A stretch of DNA of 64,000 nucleotides, taken from positions 124,001-188,000 of the forward strand of contig JAQGDQ010000153.1 in NCBI GenBank assembly GCA_030141605.1, in the 5' to 3' direction. Source of the stretch: Tubiluchus corallicola. Its lineage: Eukaryota > Animalia > Priapulida. The notes under the pieces are model-generated. The model was not told the DNA's origin. It made no database searches and saw nothing but the letters and a program-made list of their open reading frames with translations. Below, one piece after another: positions 28,614 to 64,000 of this stretch. How positions within the stretch are numbered: position 1 is the stretch's first letter; each line of letters opens with the position of its first letter. The translations under genes were made by a program, and so were the position numbers.

Positions 28614-30626
28614 TCAGTTGCCACCACAGGAAGTAGACGTATTTTCGTCAAAAGGACCTACTGCAAAAAGAAGATTTCTTCTAGTAAAGTGCAAATGTAG
28701 AACTGGAGATTTTTTAGTTGGAAAGGATCCTACAGGTTTTTTGATCACTTCAACCCTTGCATGTAGACTAGAAGATGGCCGTACTTCATCACTATCTTGA
28801 CCATTAAATGGCTGCATATTCCACAACTTAACACAGCAATCATTGCCACCAGATGCCAACTGTGTGCCTTCCCGACTAAAACACAAAGAATAAATTGTAT
28901 CAGTGTGATCTACAAACTGTGCTACCAAAGTGCCACGAGAAATATCCCACACAAGTACATAACCATCAGCTCCTGCACTTGCAAGCAGTCGACCGCATGG
29001 AGCAAAGCACAAAACTTGAACAGCACCCTTGTGCCCAGTGAGATGACGCACACAATTGCCACTTAGTACGTCCCACAATCGAACACACCTGTCGCTGGAA
29101 CCACTGGCTACATAATTAGAGTTGGGATGAAATTTAATACACTGGACGTCAGTCATGTGGCCAACAAATAACCGTATTGGTTGGTGATGATCTGTGGCCC
29201 ATAACCTGGCAGTTCCGTCCTGTCCGGCTGATGCGAAATAGTAACCATGAGGACTAAATACTACATCCCAAACAGGGTAAATGTGTCCTTTGTAGCACAC
29301 GAGGCAAGAGTACGTGAAGGTACTCCACAATCTGATAGTAGTATCTTCAGAACAAGATATAATATAGTTTCTATCTTGGCTGAAGACTGCACTGTAAACT
29401 GGTCCGCTGTGCCCCAGCAGTACCTTCATGTCTGAGGAAGTCCTGTCATCCATCATACGTTCCAAGACATCATCAGCATCTTTATCAATAATAGCCAGCT
29501 CAGATGCTGGTTTCATGCTGCGGAGTGAAGCAGGAGTAAGGGAATAGACACGCAGAACACCGTCAGCAAAGCCAGACACCAGCATGCTAGAGTCTTCTGT
29601 CACATTAACACACGTCACACTGTGGTGGGTGTTAAAGAAAGTATAAAAGCATATAGACGGAAGGCATTCGGCCGAAAGCTTCACACGTTTTGCAGCTTCG
29701 CGCAAAGCTGTAATTTTGTCTATTTTGTCTGAATCTCTTAAATCAGGTAACGGGACCCTGTTAATCGATGGAGCATTAGGATCATTTTTTGACTTGCGCG
29801 AAAACAACTCTTTCTTTGGCTTCTTTTTCTTGGGCCTGTCGTCATTATCACCAATATCATCATCATCTTCTAGAGGAACTGCTAGTTCTGGTTCTTTTAG
29901 TAACCCGTAGCATATTTTGGATTTATTTGCTTCACGTTTAGCCTCTCCACCAAGTGCACCAGCAGCAGCTGTAATTTGCTGTTCGGTACGTGGAATTCCT
30001 TCAAAAACATCTATACAAAGGTGGTCCTGTATAAGATTTAAAAGGAAGTTCTTTTTCTTCTTCTGCAAATGACGTTTAAGACAACTGTAGGAGTCTCTCG
30101 ACATGCGTATCACAAACTTGCTTGATCTGAAGTTTTCCATTATAAAGTCATTTTCTTCCAGCTGTTCTCGTTTGGTCACCATTCGTAGCTGCCGCAGATT
30201 CTCCATAACATATGATTCTTGTTCGTTTGCAAATGCATCAAAGAACTTAATAGCTTCTTCCGTATGATTGTTATAGACCAGTTCCAGATACATGTGGATG
30301 AAGATAGGATATAACAAACTTGCCAGTTCACATTTATAGATGTCCAGTTCATTTTCGATAAAGTTTTTCAAACTAGTATAGTGGTCTATATACAAACTAG
30401 GATCACCTTCACTTTTATAAACATTAAGAGCTGCAGACACATCACTTGGCACTGCTCCACTTTTCTGCTGCTCGAGTTCTTCATCCTCAATGTTTGCCTC
30501 TTTTTTGAACAACATCTGTGTTTCTTTTAAGTTGTTCTTCTTTAAGAACTGCATGACGGCAAGCAATGTCTGCTTGTCCATTGTGTTCTCTGATTTTTCA
30601 GGTTTAACTGGTAATGTTGTTTCCAT
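28614..30626 (-). CDS. TAF5: Transcription initiation factor TFIID subunit 5 (single-exon CDS, ~670 aa)
   Basis: LisH motif (DKQTLLAVMQFLKKNNLKETQMLFKKE), NTD2 domain (LLYPIFIHMYLELVYNNH...), LPSICFYT, WD40 repeats (GHSGPVY, GHIYPVWDV, FHPNSNYVASGSSDRCVRLWD), C-terminal FPTKKSPVLHLHFTRRNLL. First ATG at 30626 (the ORF track starts at GTG 30641). Confidence 0.96.
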   Translation of the reverse strand: METTLPVKPEKSENTMDKQTLLAVMQFLKKNNLKETQMLFKKEANIEDEELEQQKSGAVPSDVSAALNVYKSEGDPSLYIDHYTSLKNFIENELDIYKCELASLLYPIFIHMYLELVYNNHTEEAIKFFDAFANEQESYVMENLRQLRMVTKREQLEENDFIMENFRSSKFVIRMSRDSYSCLKRHLQKKKKNFLLNLIQDHLCIDVFEGIPRTEQQITAAAGALGGEAKREANKSKICYGLLKEPELAVPLEDDDDIGDNDDRPKKKKPKKELFSRKSKNDPNAPSINRVPLPDLRDSDKIDKITALREAAKRVKLSAECLPSICFYTFFNTHHSVTCVNVTEDSSMLVSGFADGVLRVYSLTPASLRSMKPASELAIIDKDADDVLERMMDDRTSSDMKVLLGHSGPVYSAVFSQDRNYIISCSEDTTIRLWSTFTYSCLVCYKGHIYPVWDVVFSPHGYYFASAGQDGTARLWATDHHQPIRLFVGHMTDVQCIKFHPNSNYVASGSSDRCVRLWDVLSGNCVRHLTGHKGAVQVLCFAPCGRLLASAGADGYVLVWDISRGTLVAQFVDHTDTIYSLCFSREGTQLASGGNDCCVKLWNMQPFNGQDSDEVRPSSSLHARVEVIKKPVGSFPTKKSPVLHLHFTRRNLLFAVGPFDENTSTSCGGN

Positions 30627-31357
30627 ATTCTGTTTGGGCACAGAAAACCTATAGTTACAAAAACAAATTATTTAGAAAGTACAATATGTCGATGGTCTGT
30701 AATGCTGTGCAGCTAACCATTTTGAGGCACTTTTTTGCAGGAAACATAGTTACTTGTATTAAAATTTGCGATTTTGGAAATGACTTTTTTCAGTTAAAGG
30801 TCAATGGATAGGCTAAGGTCTCCTATAAGCCTACGAAATGTGTTGAGGAAGAAGAGAGTAAATTACAAATCACTGTACGTATTTAATACTTATAGAAATA
30901 TAGTTCATAGAAGCTTTTTTGTATTAACAACAAAGCATTGCTTCTTCGCTGGCCTTGTGTAGACACAACAATATTATGGAGAAACGTATAATGACACCAA
31001 ATCACATCAAGTTAATTTAAATAAAATCATTTTTCTAGTTAACATTTCAAAAATAGAGAACAATGTGCAACAAAAATTAGCCATAACAAGGACAGGAAAG
31101 TAAAATATTTAAAAGAGTAATAACCCAACAAGACACAGTAGCGAGAGGATTAAAAAAGTCACCAACTTAGTTACCCTTCTATAGACAAAAGAATAAAGTA
31201 ATTTAAGCGTAGTTATAAATGACTGATTAAACAATAACTCACAGTTTATTTAAATGTTAGGAAAAGTAGTTTTGCAGGTATTGTTTGGTTTAGAAAATTT
31301 ATAATGAGTTTTTTGGATGAGAACATAGCCTAGGTCCAAATTCATTAAAGTTCTTAT

Positions 31358-55000: not shown

Positions 55001-58000
55001 GTTGCAGTTACAAATTACTTAAGTTGTAAAAAGTTTCAGTAAATTTTTGAAAGAAGTGAAATAATAATTACTTTCTAGTTGCTATCTATATGTTAGCTGA
55101 TATAGTATTTAGTTCTACTGGTGTTAAAACAGTGGATTGTAAATTTGCAATAAATCAAACTGCACAGTATTCACATAGCCACACGTAGATCTGTTTATCA
55201 GGTAATGATGCCAGTCTCTTTTTGCAGCATGTTGTTAAAGACCGCTGCATTGTTGGTTTCTTTATCTGTTTTTTGCCTTACGCTCGATGATATTCTATTT
55301 ATAAGCTCCGAACCAACATTCCTGCATAAAATTCTGCACCCTTCTATTATATCATGATTTTAGGAATCTTCCCATAGAAGCAAAAAGTTAATCGTACTCA
55401 ATGGAAGTTTTGGGAAACGAAGTTTGGCTTATATATGTCGTGTTTCTTGGCCTGCTTTGTCATAAGCCACATTTTAACTCGGTGCTTTTAGTCGCTTGGT
55501 TGCCATTAGGTAATAAATGCCACAAACACAGTTTGACTTTTATGTTAAATATGAGATGTTTAGTGCTACTCTTCTATTTAGAATTTGTTGCTTCCAGTGT
55601 GATGTGCTTTCGTATTTTTAGGTCGCTGGGATTGTCCGTGGCATCACTGTGATGACTGTGGAAGAGCTGCGACTTTAATGTGTGCAGAGTGCCCAAATTC
55701 TTTCTGTCAGTCACATTCCGAGGGCAATATTGCACAAGCAGCAGACAATAATTTATACTGTCATGAACATACGGCTGCAGAAGTCGAGGTGATTTGTTTA
55801 TATTGTCTGCTGGTTGCACAATGGCATTTTAGTATGAATTTAAATTGAAAATGTTAAGAACAATTCAGTTTGATTTTAGAATGTCTACTGTTTTAGGAGT
55901 CATGACAATTTAGAATGTCTTTCTTTACAATCAGCCCATGTTTTTCGTTGAGTTTTTCGTTACGTGTTTCATTCGTGCAGTTAGCATGCATTTTATAATG
56001 ACCTTTTTATAATTCTTGGTGTTTTTTGTTTGTATTTTCTATTGAGATAGATCATTGAGTTCATTGACCTCAATGCTGCCTTTTATTGTTGCCTTTTTAT
56101 TTGCACAAATACATGCCTGTACTTTGCCTTCATCGTGCAGTTACTTCTGACTATTTTCTTGTCCTGATGGTTCTCTTCTAAGTACAACTATTACACATTG
56201 GTTTAAAGTAAAATTTTGTTCTCAGCTGGATTCGTTGTGTGAGATATGGATTCCGGTAGATTTTACTAATCAGATCGGCAAATGTTGCAGTATGTCTTGC
56301 AAGCAAAATGTCACTTGCTAGCGGAAAATACACCATTTTACTATTAGCAACCTTCTTTAGAAAGACAAACATCAATCTAAACAAGCATTTCAGAAATGTG
56401 ATGCGCAGCATGTCTGTCTTCCAAAGTGCAAGACTGAAAATGAAAAGCTGTCAATTGTATTGTTATAAACAGACTAATTTCAAGCGACTTGGCTGCTGTT
56501 ACCATTATCTAGGATCATCTCTCTTAAATTTTGTGTGTATGCGTTGTTCATTTTATGAAGTAGTAAATTTGAATAATTTTGTGATGTTTATGAAAAGCAC
56601 AAACTATTGCACTCATACCTGTTGCTATAGAGAAAAGATGAGCATCACAGCAGCTGAGGGAAGCACTAGTTTTTTAAGATGTGCTCTCGTTAATTGTCGT
56701 TCAGCTTGCAATAAAACTGCTTCAATCAGTGAATTAATCACCAAATCTGATTTAGATATTTTATTTTTGACTGAATCGTGGTTTAAAGAAAATTATTCGT
56801 TAACTACTGCTAAAGTTCTCTGCCTAGCTGATTATAAGCTTCACCATGTTGCGAGACCAAGCCGCGGAGGAGGTGTTGCTATCATGTACCATTCAACCGT
56901 CCTTATGATTAAAGTATTTCGGATGTTTAATTTCAACACCTTTGAGTTGCTTGAAGCTCATTTAATAGGCACTTCTACCTTTGTGACTTTGAGTGTCATT
57001 TATCGTCCACCACCTAATGTTAAAAACAAGTATACTCTAGATGCATTCATTCGTAGTTTTTCAGAGTATCTCCATCAGCACCGGTTTGCAACTTCCTCAT
57101 TAGTGTGTTTAGGTGATTTTAATTTGCATTATGAAGACGAGAACTGTAATGATGCAAAGAAGTATAGAAATATGTTGACGTCTTATTCTATGATTCAGCA
57201 TGTGACAGAGCCTACTAACAAGCATGGCCACATAATTGATCATATACTGACACGGTCAATTGATGATGTTATCACCGATGTACGTGTGGAACCGTTAAAT
57301 TCCATATCCGACCATTATCCCATTTATTTCAAGTTAAAATATAGTAGACACTGCAGTAAGTGTCAGACTGAAGGCTACATTAATCATACTAATATCAGAC
57401 AACCTATGCTGAGAAAACTCATTAGTCCAACATACGATTCAACTCCCCATACTACAGATGGCAGTTACTGTAATGTTCAAGGCAACAGTAAGGACTTGTC
57501 AAAGAACATACTGAAAAGTAAGGTATAATAACTAAGTGTTAGCAAGTATACTGCTTTAGTTCTGAATATGGTAGACATATGGTAGAACATTTTGAAGAAT
57601 GTTATTGGTTCAGATATGCTGGAAGTATTTCACTTAAGTGCAGAAGTAGCTTGGTCAGTACACGTTAGCAAGCTTGTTTTCTGTGCGGGAACTTGTGGTT
57701 CAATTCTTAAATGTCATGTTAAAGACTTATGAAATGGTAATGGTGATTCTTTATCTGAGCAGGCAGATCTTTTAATTAATGTAAAGACCAGATACAGGCC
57801 CTTGTTTCGTCATATATCTGTATCTCTGTATATGTAATTCTTTATTTGTGCTTTTATCCTGTGTAGAGTTGTAAGTGCAAGCTACAAAAAATGGCCACTC
57901 CTGCTTTGATGTTTGAACAACTCAGATAAATGTTAATTTTCTTTCTCTAGGAGCGGATAAGAATAAACGCTGCTATTGCTGCAAGTATCCAGGAAGCAGT

Positions 58001-58011
58001 CAACAGTGAAT
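40026..58011 (+). CDS. NSD: NSD/Mes-4 family histone H3K36 methyltransferase, multi-exon; 3' end beyond the window
   Basis: Phase-consistent exons: 40026-40226, 40538-40763, 41032-41121 (or -41148 with a GC donor), 42282-43223 (PWWP1 [14 protein letters not shown], two KKRGRP AT-hooks), 44429-44580, 45706-45961, 46332-46532, 46914-47093, 47598-47827 (PHDs; PWWP2 [11 protein letters not shown]), 49746-49887, 50261-50373, 50996-51177 (AWS), 51849-51936 (RGWGL), 52658-52830 (SET, RFMNHS), 53124-53209, 53702-53808 (ELTFNY, post-[16 protein letters not shown]), 54656-54851, 55622-55788 (PHD5-C5HCH), 57951-58011. Start codon uncertain (first in-exon ATG at 40092). Confidence 0.94.
42282..43223 (+). 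CDS. NSD: NSD large exon: PWWP1 domain, AT-hooks, basic region
   Basis: ORF 42350..43267: [18 protein letters not shown]...[15 protein letters not shown]; KKKRGRPS and KKKRGRPP. Confidence 0.93.
47905..48060. mobile_element. Possible decayed Tigger/pogo-like element end
   Basis: Repeated GTTATAACGA / TTATTACGA subterminal motifs; second end not identified. Confidence 0.3.
50996..53808 (+). CDS. NSD: NSD AWS-SET-postSET exons
   Basis: [18 protein letters not shown]; RGWGLKT; FVGEYVG; [21 protein letters not shown]; ELTFNYNL; [10 protein letters not shown]. Confidence 0.95.
56308..57528 (+). mobile_element. Stand-alone LINE-type (CR1/L2-like) AP-endonuclease (EEP fold) ORF without RT, in an NSD intron
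   Basis: APE motifs in order: [41 protein letters not shown]...IDHILT, SDHYPI; ORF stops ~60 aa later; no RT motifs downstream. Confidence 0.8.
57645..57765 (+). mobile_element. tRNA-derived SINE head (decayed)
   Basis: A-box-like TAGCTTGGTCAGT and B-box-like GGTTCAATTC, followed by GTCATGTTAAAGACTTATGAAATGGTA. Confidence 0.45.
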
Positions 58012-58033: not shown

Positions 58034-58434
58034 TGTGAGAGACTACTACTTCATGATGCCCAAAGTCAAAAATTCATGTTTGAGTAGCTTTATTACGTTT
58101 TATCTGTAAAAAAATATAACAAAATATAACAAACTAATTTGAGCCAAAAAGAAAACAAAGAAATTAATAATAAAGTGAGACTGAATAATCAAAATAAACT
58201 TACATCATGGCTCTACTACTCTTGACAAATAAATGGTTTAACTGAGACAAAACAACAACAACTCTCTTAGCCAATAACAAACTGCCAACTAACCAGGTAA
58301 ACTAGCTCTGTCAATAGAGCATGACAGAAAGAAGCCAAGCCAAGACTTACATATGAATGCAGTTGAAGGACAGTATAGGGGGTTTACAGAATAAGAGAGC
58401 ACTGAACTAATAAAATAACCCAAAATTCTTCACA
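58034..58434 (-). repeat. 3' LTR (401 bp, TGT...ACA)
   Basis: Begins TGTGAGA and ends TCTTCACA; polypurine tract AAGGGGGCGG lies immediately 5' on the minus strand (58435-58444); direct repeat of 63742 onward. Confidence 0.95.
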
Positions 58435-58500
58435 CCGCCCCCTTAAATGCGACTTTAATTACAGGACCATTTACCAAAATAATTGAGTTTACAACAGAAA

Positions 58501-60880
58501 TTAGATGTGTCCTTCAATTAAGCATAATTGATTAATATGTCGTCTTAGAATGCCAGAAGCTGTCTTCAATGTTGCAAACCGCACCAAACCATCTTCATCA
58601 GGACTGGCTACTATTACTCTGCCTAGAGCCCAACTGCTTCGTGGAGTCTGGATGTCTTTAATTAAGACGATGTCACCTTCTTGGATGTTTTTGTTGACTC
58701 TGTTCCATTTAGACCTTTGCTGGAGCATAACTATATATTCCTTCTTCCACCTTTGCCAAAATATGTTGGCCATATGTTGAATGTGGCGCCATCTTCTTGA
58801 GTACACATCACAGTCGGTGAATTTTCCAGGTGGTAGAGTAGGACCATTGCGAAACTACAGAAATCAGACGACTGTTCAGGATATTCTCAACCTGACAAAA
58901 ATATGTATGTAATGCTTCATCATCTATGGTGTGCTTGTCCATGATAAAGGCAAGTGTTCGTTTTACGCTCTTTATCAGGTGCTCCCAAACTCCTCCAGTG
59001 TGTGGAGACTGAGGAACATTAAATTGCCATTCGATTCCCTTTTTTTGTAATGCCTTGGAAATGTCCTCATTGATCCACTGCTCGATTGATCTCTTCAGTT
59101 CACGATCTGCTTCAGTTAAATTAGTGCCACAATCAGATCGCAGCATCTTGGGGTCGCCTCTTCGACAAACAAATCTTTGGATAGCATTAATTAAGGAGTC
59201 ACTTTCCATTGTATATAGCCAACGCTGCCATCTTTCTTGGATACCACTGTCCAATTCATCATTCCAAGACTTCCTGTGAAGCACAGTGGCTTCCTGAAAG
59301 AGAAGTTTTCCTCTAACAACATAGGGAGATAAGAAGCCCAGGGGATCATACACTGAGCATAAAATTTGGACCGATTTTCCACGTTTCTCTGCTGGTATGC
59401 TTTCCAAGACTTCTTTCTTGTTGCTCAGCCATTTGGTAAGGTTGAAACCACTTTCAGCTAATAGTGAAGTCATTTGATGAACTAAGTTACAAGCAGCTTG
59501 CACAGTATCAACCGACTTTAAAAAATCATCGATGTAAAAGTTCCGTTCAACAGCCTGGGTTATTTCCTTGTCGTACTTGTCTTCGTTGTCTGTGGCTGTG
59601 CGTCCAAGGGCAAAAGAAGAGATACTGGGAGACCATACACCTCCAAAGAGATGAACTGTCATCCGATAAACTTTTACAGTGTCTTCCAGATTTCCGTCTC
59701 TCCAATATAAGAATCTCAGTGTATCTCTATCTTCGGGCCTGACACGGACCTGGTAAAACATCGCTTCAATATCTGCCATGACAGCGACGTCCTCCAGACG
59801 AAAGCGTATAAGAACTCCTATGAGCTTGCTAGTCAAGTCAGGACCTTGCAAGACAACGTCGTTAAGTGAGACTCCATTAAACTTGGCCCTGCAGTCGAAA
59901 ACAATGCGAGTTTTATCAGGCTTGTTGACATTAAAAACTGGGAAATGAGGGATATACCATATCTTCCCCATGACGCCTGAATCTTCATCAACTTCTTCAG
60001 CATATCCACAAGTTAACAGATTGGAGATTTCTGCTGAATACTTTTTGTGCAGTTCTGGGTGTTTAGAAAGCCTGATCTTCAAACTTGATAGTCTGGATTC
60101 AGCTATTGGTCGATTATCCTCCAAATTTGGATCGTGCTCCTTAATTAGGAATGGCTAATTGATAATGGTTATCAGCGGTTTTTACTATGCTATTTTCCCA
60201 GATTTTTAGTGCACGCTTGTCTTGTTTTGAGTGAGTTACAGTTTCATCATCGTCATTGATACATCTCTCCAATCTCCAAAATTTTTCAACCTGTGTTGAC
60301 AGTATGTGATCGTTGTTTATGTCAACGTGAGCATAATTGGCTATGTAACATAGTGATTGGCTGCCGCCCCCTATGGGCCCATTTAGAGTCCATCCGAGTG
60401 CAGTTCTGATGTCATAAGGATCCATTGGCGAAGAACCAAGTTTCACTTCAAGAGGTGCCAAGGCAACCGGTACATCCTGTCCAATGAGAAGCATGACGCA
60501 GTTAAAGTCTACATCAGGAAATGAGAGGTCACTGAGATGATCTAAAGTGGACAAATCAGTCTTTTTAACAATACTCTCTGTGAGGCTTGGAAAGGCATCT
60601 ATTGCATAAACTGTATTCAGTTTAATAGCTTCTTTGGCCTCTCCACAGTTGTTGCCTCTTACTGTAAGAGAAATTTTCTCAACTGATGTAGTCTGCTTCT
60701 GACCTAATGTGGAAAGCGTCAACGATGTTTTATGTCCTTTTAGACCTAGTAGCTTCAAAAGTCTTTTACAGCAAAATGAACGATTGCTTCCCCCATCCAG
60801 AAAAGCATAAGTAGATATGGACTATGAGCTGCCTTCAGATGTAACAGTTACAGCGACAACTGGCAAAACGATTTTTTCCT
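58501..60880 (-). pseudogene. pol: Bel/Pao pol (protease-RT-integrase) with stops, frameshifts and internal deletions
   Basis: ORFs 60141..60758, 58808..60124, 58501..58806; in-frame TAG before the protease motif; RNase H and the N-terminal integrase region appear deleted near 59215. Confidence 0.9.
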
Positions 60881-62686
60881 TTATAGAAAGTGCAGATGAT
60901 GCACATACTGTGGCATCAGCTTCCATTGCCTCACTGGTTTGTGTGCCCTTTTACTTGCTTGCATCTGATGGCAACCAACTTTCCAATGCTGCATGGAGTA
61001 AGTCAGAATGGCTTGATTGCATCCTTGTCTTTGACACTGTGCTGCTCTATGTCTGCCAGGATTTAGACAATTGAAACAAAGATGTTTTTCCTTGACGTAT
61101 TGGAGACGAGCATCATCTGTCATTTTCTTGAATTTTCCACATGCTCTGAGATGGTGATTTTCCTTACACATCAGACATGTCTTTGAAGCTGGCTGGTCAG
61201 GTCTCTTCTCTTTACTTGGAGTTTCAACTGAAGAACTTGAATAGCTGACAAAACTCTTTACAGGATCCTTTTTGTTTTTGTAATCTTTGGCATTATCGCT
61301 ACCGCTCTTACTGACCTTTCGAGCATCAGACAAGCAGCCGTACACAGGATGAGACATCTCTTCAGAAACTTCTTGAACAAAGTTCTTTACATCAAACATG
61401 TCTGGGTTCCTGTGTTCTGATCTTGCAGTTTGAGTAACCTTAGTCTGCCATCTGCTTTGATATTTGTATGGTAGCTTTTTGATCACGTCCAAGATGTTTG
61501 CTTGAGTGTTAAGCTCCCCGAGACTATTCATTGACCATAGTGTCTCTATACAACTATTTAGCAGATCAGAAAAGTCACGTAATTTCTCTGGTTCACTTGG
61601 CATAATGCTTCCAAACTCTTTTAATTTGTTTACCCAAGCTTGTGTTATGATGTAGGGCTGGCCAAAGCGTTCTGCCAACAATCGCTTAGCATGGGCATAT
61701 GCAGTGTGTGGTTCCATATAGTTGCACCTTTCAATGACTTGCTTAGCCCTGCCTGTGCACAATTGTAGTAGACGACTAAACCTTGCAGACTCATCTGTAG
61801 TGTAACACTCTATGCTAGCCTCTAGTCTTCTCATAAAACGCCAGTAATGTAATGGATTGCCGTCAAAAACGTCAACTTCTACTTTAGGCAAATGTAGTGT
61901 CTGGTAGATACTATTCTGTTGTCTTTGACCTTCCATCGTAAAGTTGATCATAGCACTGAGGTCAGGATTGTGTGATGTGGACGGCTCATCCATAATATTA
62001 GCTGCAAATCTGGGAGTAGAACCCTCCATATGATTATTGTTGCCGTTCGTTGGAGATGCACGATGTGGAATAAAATGCGGAGCCATTGCACTCAAGTTTC
62101 TCATCTGTCTACTGGGAGGCATATTTTCAGAGCGATTTTCATGTTTGAATTTTCGAAAGTCATGCATGAGTGGTTGTACACGTGTCTGATATATTTGTCT
62201 CCAAACATCTACATAACGAGAAAAATGCGATGCTTCATGGCGACGCAGCACTTCCATATTCATCCAAGGCTTCTGCTGACCAATAAAGTGTACTACCTTG
62301 ACATCTCTTTCAAACCGGCGCATTGCAGCAATGTAACCATACCTTGCATCATCATCAACATTGACCATATTGTAAGTATATGGAAGATGTTTGTCGAAAT
62401 CGCCTGCCCATTTACGGAAAAACATATTCAGCAGTCCCTGATCACCTCCATCAAAGCTACCATTTTGACAAGCAAATGCTAGTAACTGTTCATATGGTGT
62501 CACATCCGGCTTAAACACGAAAACACCAGAATTGAATAAGTCTGGCCAGTCAACGTCAGGAGCTGCGGATAATTCCTGCCTCTGAAATAAATCATCTATG
62601 TTTGCCATAACCAAAGTGTCAGCATCAAGGAAAACACATTTACTAAACTGTGTAAGTTTCCAGCAATGCAGTTTCGTGAAACTCAC
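60881..62686 (-). CDS. Glycogenin-like GT8 domain fused in frame to Bel/Pao Gag (DUF1759 + CCHC knuckles)
   Basis: 601-aa ORF: residues 1-174 glycogenin-like (FTKLHCW, CVFLDADTLV, FNSGVFV, SFDGGDQGLLN, KHLPYTYN, KVVHFIG--KPW); then LPKVEVDVFDGNPLHY...; CLMCKENHHLRAC and CFNCLNPGRHRAAQC. Confidence 0.9.
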   Translation of the reverse strand: MSFTKLHCWKLTQFSKCVFLDADTLVMANIDDLFQRQELSAAPDVDWPDLFNSGVFVFKPDVTPYEQLLAFACQNGSFDGGDQGLLNMFFRKWAGDFDKHLPYTYNMVNVDDDARYGYIAAMRRFERDVKVVHFIGQQKPWMNMEVLRRHEASHFSRYVDVWRQIYQTRVQPLMHDFRKFKHENRSENMPPSRQMRNLSAMAPHFIPHRASPTNGNNNHMEGSTPRFAANIMDEPSTSHNPDLSAMINFTMEGQRQQNSIYQTLHLPKVEVDVFDGNPLHYWRFMRRLEASIECYTTDESARFSRLLQLCTGRAKQVIERCNYMEPHTAYAHAKRLLAERFGQPYIITQAWVNKLKEFGSIMPSEPEKLRDFSDLLNSCIETLWSMNSLGELNTQANILDVIKKLPYKYQSRWQTKVTQTARSEHRNPDMFDVKNFVQEVSEEMSHPVYGCLSDARKVSKSGSDNAKDYKNKKDPVKSFVSYSSSSVETPSKEKRPDQPASKTCLMCKENHHLRACGKFKKMTDDARLQYVKEKHLCFNCLNPGRHRAAQCQRQGCNQAILTYSMQHWKVGCHQMQASKRAHKPVRQWKLMPQYVHHLHFL

Positions 62687-62923
62687 ACCCAGCTCAGGTC
62701 GTCCCTATGCACTTAGATTTTCATGATCCAAACTGTCAATGATGTCAAAGGTCTCCACCTGATCAAAAGTCTTTTGAAGAAGACCCTTCACCTGGTCAGA
62801 CACATCAGCAGATATCAGGATTACTAACTGTCGTTGTGTGCCAGTCTGCTTCAATGAATTGGCAAGTACCATAGCAGCTGTTGCATACTGATCGTTGGTT
62901 GCTAGCATAACATAAGCCTCGTC
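62165..62923 (-). pseudogene. GYG: Captured intronless glycogenin catalytic domain with one in-frame TAG (62705-62707)
   Basis: DEAYVMLATNDQYATAAMVLANSLKQTGTQRQLVIL...DSLDHENLSA*GRPELGVSFTKLHCW is collinear with the glycogenin N-terminus as I recall it (AFVTLTTNDAYAKGALVLG...RPELGVTLTKLHCW). Confidence 0.9.
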
Positions 62924-62967
62924 TACTGATATTCTATCACACAATGAAGACTTCTTAAACCATTCTG

Positions 62968-63492
62968 TCACTTTAGTTTTACATGCAACTTTGTCAAATT
63001 TAACTTTAAAAAACTTTTCTGGCTTGCAGTCAGTTTATCAATATCACTTCCCAAATTACTCTCATTTTCAAGCCGCTTTTGCTTCACTTTTAGTGCTTGC
63101 AGTTTTAATTCACACTCCTGAATTTTTAATTCATTGTCCTTGAGTTTGCGAGAATTCTCAGAAAGCTTCCCACCAGTTTTAAAACTCGAGTAACCACTTT
63201 TGGAAATTCTCGACCGAGTGTTTGTGGTGTGTTGCTCCCCCATGCTACCTGTAGCATGTAGCTGCTGCATGTGGCTGACTGTAGCTTCGGCCTTGAAACT
63301 ACCTGTGGGGGGTGGGCTGTCCACTGCTGGCACATGATGAGCAATAATTCTCTCCACTAGTTCAGCTTTAATTCCACCAACTGCTAAGCCTTTCTGACGA
63401 AGTATTTCTTTTAATTGTTCTCTGGTTTTTGTTTTCAGTTCTTCTTCTGTGTATTGCTTTTCAGCCAGTTCATAAAATTTAGGCTCTACCAT
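62968..63492 (-). CDS. Element N-terminal ORF: SAP domain + coiled coil
   Basis: LKTKTREQLKEILRQKGLAVGGIKAELVERI matches the SAP consensus (L..LK..L+.+GL...G.K.EL+.R); ATG at 63492; ends in a -1 frame overlap with the glycogenin ORF. Confidence 0.75.
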   Translation of the reverse strand: MVEPKFYELAEKQYTEEELKTKTREQLKEILRQKGLAVGGIKAELVERIIAHHVPAVDSPPPTGSFKAEATVSHMQQLHATGSMGEQHTTNTRSRISKSGYSSFKTGGKLSENSRKLKDNELKIQECELKLQALKVKQKRLENESNLGSDIDKLTASQKSFLKLNLTKLHVKLK

Positions 63493-63741
63493 TATAAACA
63501 AGCTGTGAAAAATTTATACTAGACAAATAAACCAGTTACTGCTGAATCTAGGTCACAGAACTCAAACCAGGTATTGCAGATTTTCAATGCCACTGTCTGA
63601 TCAACACCAGGCTTGTAGGCTGTACAGCTTGTCCTGTATAACAAATGCAGTCATCATTGCTGTCCATGTCTGACTTTGTACTCAGCAAACCTTCTCCTGT
63701 CCTGTAGTTTTCCCAACAAGAATGGTAGAAGGATATAAAAC

Positions 63742-64000
63742 TGTGAGAGACTACTACTTCATGATGCCCAAAGTCAAAAATTCATGTTTGAGTAGCTTTA
63801 TTACGTTTTATCTGTAAAAAAATATAACAAAATATAACAAACTAATTTGAGCCAAAAAGAAAACAAAGAAATTAATAATAAAGTGAGACTGAATAATCAA
63901 AATAAACTTACATCATGGCTCTACTACTCTTGACAAATAAATGGTTTAACTGAGACAAAACAACAACAACAACTCTCTTAGCCAAGAACAGACTGCCAAC
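63742..64000 (-). repeat. 5' LTR (partial; continues beyond the window)
   Basis: Matches 58034-58290 except for two substitutions and one AAC-unit indel by eye. Confidence 0.95.

Follow-up and report, generated by a model that had tools for sequence, protein, structure and literature searches.

What is glycogenin, the enzyme that starts glycogen, doing in the Gag of a retrotransposon? The question is raised by a stretch of 64,000 nucleotides from the priapulid Tubiluchus corallicola (positions 124,001 to 188,000 of contig JAQGDQ010000153.1, assembly GCA_030141605.1; hereafter the window). Here a Bel/Pao long terminal repeat (LTR) retrotransposon lies on the minus strand from position 58034 to beyond the window end at 64000, and its gag region holds an intronless catalytic domain of 255 codons (62156..62920) of the glycogenin type, a member of glycosyltransferase family 8 (GT8). 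This copy of the element is broken. Contigs of public sequencing runs show that it belongs to a multi-copy family with glycogenin in gag, and the comparison of two lineages of this family supports strong purifying selection on the glycogenin domain.

The glycogenin domain in Gag

The domain is recognized by the GT8 profile PF01501 with 50 bits (cut-off 24), and its structure model, in which the stop codon described below was entered as X, has a predicted local distance difference test (pLDDT) score of 87 and a template modeling (TM) score of 0.88 to human glycogenin-1 (3u2w). Its identity to 270 full-domain homologues does not exceed 57% (median 52%), whereas the host enzymes among themselves typically share 61%. 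In a tree of 271 domains it stands on a long branch, none of the groupings next to it is reliable, and the tree yields no trustworthy donor. Among 18 positions that we take to make up the donor, metal, catalytic and acceptor sites of glycogenin, 17 match the majority of the homologues, and the remaining one, rabbit Thr82, has been replaced by Ser both in the window and in each of the runs X1, X3 and X5 introduced below, an exchange that reportedly leaves glycogenin active. Thr83Met is listed as a human disease allele in passages of PMC13671788. The motifs named in the original prediction are all in place (DADT at 62626, FTKL at 62680, SFDGGDQG at 62458, ARYGY, VVHF and KPW); the Tyr of ARYGY (codon 62339..62341, read from 62341 to 62339) is the equivalent of the acceptor tyrosine (rabbit Y194, human Y195) and stands in an alignment column that is Tyr in 269 of the 270 homologues. 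Judged from sequence and model, the enzyme looks competent. The C-terminal tail that binds glycogen synthase is absent, as had been predicted: its motif, found in 230 of the 270 homologues, occurs in none of the six frames of the element, and the best match of the tail profile has an E-value of 0.27. According to passages of Marr et al. 2022 (PMC9188544), this tail of ~34 residues is the minimal glycogen-synthase-binding region.

Read along the minus strand, the 5' LTR (63742..64000, cut by the window end, with its terminus ...CA at 63742) precedes a Gag leader composed of a SAP domain (63337..63438; Pfam PF02037, E-value 4e-8; first ATG at 63495) and, as seen in translation, a Ser/Arg-rich stretch with a coiled coil, typical of this group of Gag proteins (63035..63336). 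The relatives of the element have the same layout, and two of them likewise begin with a SAP domain. The glycogenin domain follows a stretch of overlapping frames (62968..63034), where this copy changes frame after the leader and near which sibling contigs differ in length. Downstream of it, a low-complexity spacer devoid of a synthase-binding tail (61961..62155) leads to the capsid region (61016..61960), which scores above the cut-off of the DUF1759 profile and contains Cys-His zinc motifs, two of them readable and a third broken by a frameshift. A DUF1759 capsid with Cys-His motifs in Gag is a hallmark of Bel/Pao elements. As far as it lies inside the window, the 5' LTR agrees with the 3' LTR in 254 of 256 aligned letters, plus one 3-letter gap. 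Profiles and repeats therefore uphold the predicted position of an intronless domain after the SAP/coiled-coil leader, before the DUF1759 Gag and between two LTRs.

On the other hand, the window copy does not show the intact fusion that had been claimed, which is broken by a stop and a frameshift. An in-frame TAG (62705..62707) interrupts the glycogenin domain after its first 71 codons, and the 607-codon stop-to-stop frame beyond it (60881-62704) begins at an RPELG motif, so that the 601-residue open reading frame, reported as holding a complete domain, contains only its last two thirds. The domain does run in frame and unbroken into the DUF1759 Gag, as proposed, but the SAP/coiled-coil leader is in a different frame. 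The frame is broken again near 61008, 60147 and 58850, and, measured against four full-length relatives, ~430-450 codons have been lost from RNase H and integrase, namely most of the former and the first half of the latter. The stop is a private feature of the window copy, as X1, X3 and X5 (3 of 3 runs compared) all read another letter in the codon. The LTRs of the copy differ by less than 1%, and its body, with its many breaks, by ~2% from the main form of the family; it may have been made from an already defective template.

Sibling copies, a sister lineage and selection

Contigs of four of six public runs were compared with the window, three of them (X1, X3 and X5) on a narrower stretch; X1 and X2 come from one sample, X3 from another study and X5 from a third. 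With contig depth taken as a rough guide, the glycogenin domain is as deep as Gag and 6-10 times deeper than the host flank, both in X1 (70-77 versus 6.7) and in X2 (1456-1775 versus 203-242). One X1 contig (62045-63114) crosses the leader junction and reaches 110 letters into the spacer downstream of the domain, X3 contigs cover 62578-63321 and 61257-62144, and none of the 12 contig joints listed skips the domain. Thus, neither of the two outcomes that had been envisaged as fatal came true: the domain is not confined to the window copy, being carried by its siblings, and the fusion is hardly an assembly chimera, as contigs of two studies, albeit built from short reads, cross the junctions. 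The high depth of X3 over part of the domain was considered as a trace of the host message, an idea that was dropped because the fragments are short and have adapter ends.

At each frame break of the window copy, the length differences between it and its siblings fit one continuous frame, the longest contigs being partial. From these differences we tentatively infer a single gag-pol reading frame in the unbroken family members, which would make one polyprotein in the order SAP, coiled coil, glycogenin, capsid, protease and reverse transcriptase (RT). Because one X3 contig crosses the large deletion in pol without a gap, if by only 30 letters, the main form is probably non-autonomous, although this is not firm.

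A sister lineage is represented in X5, which contains next to none of the main form. Its pieces, diverged by 8-13%, comprise LTR, leader, glycogenin, Gag and a full-length pol, with depths of 15-18 for the coding parts. The glycogenin piece (62330-62965) is similar to the Gag and Pol pieces in depth (15.3 versus 16.4 and 17.5, respectively) and in divergence (9.1% versus 10.8% and 10-13%), and on this basis we infer that it is linked to Gag.

Selection was assessed in 107 codons (62462-62785, the stop codon excluded), the part over which all differences are listed. X5 and X1 differ there by 17 synonymous and 3 replacement changes, which corresponds to a synonymous divergence (dS) of 0.22-0.31, a replacement divergence (dN) of 0.012-0.013 and a dN/dS of 0.04-0.06, with a one-sided P of 1.8e-7 or less versus neutrality; for X5 and X3 the counts are 17 and 4, and dN/dS is 0.05-0.08. 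Third positions account for 15 of the 19 changes found only in X5. The ratio is far from the value of about 1 that had been named for a neutral one-off insertion, and it supports the original prediction that selection retains glycogenin in the lineage. The predicted origin of the domain, a spliced glycogenin of the host taken up into gag, is supported as well. The columns hit by the 3 replacements between X5 and X1 are all variable. Of the 3 by which the window differs from X1, however, 2 strike near-invariant columns, and the changes of the window copy also create its stop, which argues for constraint in the lineages and decay in the copy. Part of the divergence cited earlier as a sign of selection, namely the PDVDWPDL motif, is in fact decay private to the window copy. 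A control of 14 automatically chosen RT rows (6 synonymous, 8 replacement) was set aside, as it is not a fair sample.

X5 also contains a second, far more distant glycogenin piece (62616-62674), with loose ends on both sides, which continues as coding sequence, has the usual Thr motif and is alike in 19 of 30 letters by eye. It possibly stems from the host gene or its message, or from another organism in the run. Its much greater distance suggests that the capture is old.

A putative glucan coat on the particle

We propose the following scenario. Long ago, template switching likely brought a spliced message of host glycogenin into the variable spacer between the coiled coil and the capsid. In the relatives this interval is a low-complexity spacer of varied length, which suggests that glycogenin came to lie in a permissive part of Gag, ahead of the capsid. 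The model of the capsid region, a two-lobed retro-capsid fold, best matches the capsids of Copia, PNMA2, Arc and Ty3, one consistent class, with modest scores (Foldseek E-values of 0.02-0.14; Z 8.4 over 164 aligned residues, root-mean-square deviation 7.3). Passages of 10.1101/2023.02.09.527862 describe how residues N-terminal to the capsid of PNMA2 form an outer spike. By analogy, the glycogenin domain, which has flexible spacers on both sides, would face the cytosol, and outside the capsid it would meet cytosolic UDP-glucose. Crowded on the Gag lattice, the enzyme could dimerize and build chains of about 8-13 glucoses. The particle would then carry short glucan stubs with no growth into a glycogen granule; as the synthase-binding tail is absent, it would not tether glycogen synthase. 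On balance, we lean towards an enzyme that is active and would attach glucose to its own tyrosine on the exterior of the Gag particle.

The benefit to the element is a matter of guesswork and might consist in a glycogen-like coat, the placement of particles among glycogen stores and escape from clearance in germ cells. The roles suggested originally, namely self-glucosylated particles, a glycan shield or targeting to glycogen, are candidates of the same kind, with the retained active site and the location of the domain outside the capsid fold as their premises. That the coat helps particles to persist among these stores is a guess that we hold for possible rather than probable. It is with the same reserve that we put forward the whole picture, in which a Gag equipped with a glycogen-priming enzyme would coat its capsid in alpha-1,4-glucan, and the particle would mimic a glycogen seed in germ cells.

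Several observations weigh against this scenario. In the domain, 10 of 85 near-invariant columns are no longer conserved (losses in host enzymes: median 0, 95th percentile 4), 2 of them demonstrably through private decay and at least 3 in all runs alike, and the acceptor arm has a 3-residue insertion. The selection test covers 107 of the 255 codons and one pair of lineages; neither the acceptor tyrosine nor the second pair of conserved aspartates is among the tested codons, both being seen in the window alone. In X5 the glycogenin piece is not joined to Gag or Pol by any contig, a minor long-pol form in X1 comes without a glycogenin piece of its own, and contig depth yields no copy count. The modest capsid scores point in the same direction, and the protease of the element could cut the domain off.

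The last point leads to the alternative that survives best, although we find it unlikely: the domain may be active but freed by the protease or acting in trans, where it would glucosylate another protein, such as a host restriction factor or a partner of Gag, or make free short glucans. The spacers that flank the domain would suit this possibility, as would the altered acceptor arm and the family-wide changes at conserved columns. There is also a precedent in Gat1, a relative of glycogenin that, according to passages of 10.1101/764241, modifies Skp1 without glycosylating itself. However, the element has kept the acceptor tyrosine and a donor site of the glycogenin type, and its domain scores 221 bits with glycogenin versus 96 bits with Gat1. 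Less likely still is that the domain serves as a docking or dimerizing module, which would pair with host glycogenin and hence with the synthase and the granules, catalysis being incidental. Glycogenin is described as working as a dimer in passages of 10.1101/764241 and PMC9188544, and a folded binding surface would also yield strong constraint. Nonetheless, the changes, which affect ~45% of the domain and include the loss of several invariant columns without a catalytic role, have spared nearly all catalytic residues, a pattern opposite to that of a dead scaffold.

A comparably low likelihood applies to the idea that the low dN/dS comes from a host gene, with the X5 piece as an intronless host paralogue and the element copy as recent neutral cargo. 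The missing X5 link and the missing X1 piece mentioned above would agree with it, and the X5 contigs do not reach the host flank, which leaves no reference for single-copy depth. Yet the X5 piece has no listed loose end, extends 45 letters into the upstream linker and matches the leader, Gag and Pol of X5 in depth and divergence; moreover, the second, distant piece of X5 is the better candidate for a host gene, and a neutral cargo of 765 bases would hardly be expected to occur in what seem to be all copies while empty forms are absent. We regard as very improbable that the host has co-opted the family as an extra source of glycogenin, with selection acting for the host: it would be in keeping with the strong constraint and the intact active site, but not with the absence of the synthase-binding tail needed for normal priming, with LTRs that are near-identical and face many different flanks (seen as loose ends), or with the free decay of the window copy. 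Finally, an assembly chimera or a one-off retrocopy, conceivable while a single assembled copy is in hand, is already largely refuted and has a negligible chance of being correct, since two studies have contigs across the junction regions, with multi-copy depth, and the third has the diverged form.

If the enzyme indeed glucosylates its own tyrosine on the particle, Gag is expected to bear tyrosine-linked glucose, which is a sharp prediction. The host domains captured in the published cases compared here serve, as far as passages of these sources go, nucleic-acid handling, ubiquitin, apoptosis or membranes. An enzyme of central carbohydrate metabolism, fixed in Gag at a dN/dS near 0.05, argues that the element gains from sugar chemistry. 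Such a gain would tie transposon biology to glycogen metabolism, would indicate a hitherto unknown means by which cytoplasmic particles hide or move about, and would offer a natural test of glycogenin without its synthase tether.

Related systems and the surroundings of the element

The element shares with Bel/Pao (Belpaoviridae), as characterized in passages of de la Chaux and Wagner 2011 (PMC3118150), the LTRs, a polypurine tract, the order of protease, RT and integrase in Pol, and the DUF1759, Peptidase_A17 and DUF5641 domains, and its RT is 46-57% identical to that of 26 related loci. Unlike these relatives, with their low-complexity spacer, it holds an enzyme of 255 residues in this part of Gag: glycogenin was found in none of the 26 RT-related loci, the start of Gag being fully visible in 14 of them (about 8 distinct elements), and in none of 21 scanned proteins of related elements. 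With animal glycogenin, as presented in passages of Marr et al. 2022 (PMC9188544), the domain shares the fold, the metal motif, the catalytic aspartates and the acceptor tyrosine, but it differs in the missing tail, the missing introns, the location inside Gag, and the limited identity and long branch noted above. The glycogenin-like GT8 domain of Gat1 from Toxoplasma and Pythium is similar in that it has no synthase tail; however, passages of 10.1101/764241 indicate that Gat1 prefers UDP-galactose, and the domain of the element is much closer to true glycogenin.

LTR elements are already known to capture host domains, and what is unusual here is the glycogenin cargo together with unusually clear evidence of selection. 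Transposons with captured domains, described in passages of Abrusan et al. 2013 (PMC3597677) and in those on the planarian Burro (PMC6431247), likewise carry host domains in frame within the polyprotein, some under purifying selection. Neither GT8 nor glycogenin appears in text passages or 4 of the 5 supplements of PMC3597677, and the extra domains of Burro given in passages of PMC6431247 are related to apoptosis, ubiquitin and dUTPase, with no self-modifying sugar enzyme. The retrocopies mediated by LTR elements in Tan et al. 2016 (PMC5131818), where a spliced message enters the element, often in frame, illustrate the likely route of capture. These are young chimeras in discontinuous elements, whereas here gag is kept, the sister lineage has a full-length pol and the insert is under long-term constraint.

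Searches for the same fusion in proteins, in sets that are thin in animal transposon proteins and do not include Repbase and Dfam, found none among the best 120 of 2215 matches of near length, none among the best 120 of 162 longer ones (a weak search), and none among the best 120 of 2750 matches to the domain alone, the top one being 54% identical over most of the domain. Among 1.84 billion representatives, the best 150 of 10204 matches each cover one half, none of 28 matches scanned contains both halves in one protein, and metagenome and viral contigs searched with the fusion yielded none. No element bearing glycogenin or GT8 was found in the literature searched, in part by titles and the first lines of abstracts, repeat databases and most subscription papers being outside the scope of the search.

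The Gag spacer has a feature of its own, a motif of the type LNPxAxE(W/F) present in 7 of 20 relatives (P0121, P0122, P0124, P0125, P0126, P0196 and P0358) and, in a degenerate form, at 62060-62100 of the window, after the glycogenin domain; it has no match in 140,817 residues of glycogenins. It may resemble PAM2, the motif that binds the poly(A)-binding protein.

The remaining parts of the element, all on the minus strand, include a protease region delineated by tblastn of full-length relatives and separated from Gag and RT by frame breaks (60141..60902), RT with the start of Peptidase_A17 and the second half of integrase, joined by internal deletions (58808..60154; the long form is present in X5), DUF5641 as the C-terminus of the Bel/Pao Pol (58504..58854; E-value 5.5e-33), a polypurine tract (58435..58444) and, adjoining it, the 3' LTR of 401 bases (58034..58434, TG...CA). 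No clean tRNA primer site was found downstream of the 5' LTR in the window copy. In X1 and X2 the depth of the LTRs (58034-58434, 63742-64000) is hundreds of times that of the flank, versus 6-10 times for the interior, which suggests many solo LTRs or other interiors that share the LTR, with short overlapping contigs inflating the figure.

The element probably lies antisense in an intron of an NSD-type gene, 22 bases past a probable exon with AG/GT borders (57951..58011, plus strand), the probable assignment of which to this gene is suggested by PWWP, PHD and C5HCH exons upstream of it. One X3 contig (57840-58058) links the host flank to the LTR by ~25 letters, below the 31-letter mark for a bridge, so an LTR may occupy the same site in the sample of the second study. 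Between the NSD-type exons there is also a fragment of a LINE-type endonuclease (56260-57528, plus strand), adjoining the Bel/Pao insertion. Elsewhere in the window, a TAF5-like gene (28614-30671, minus strand) with TFIID_NTD2 and WD40 domains is encoded in one uninterrupted frame of 685 codons, its coding part being free of introns.

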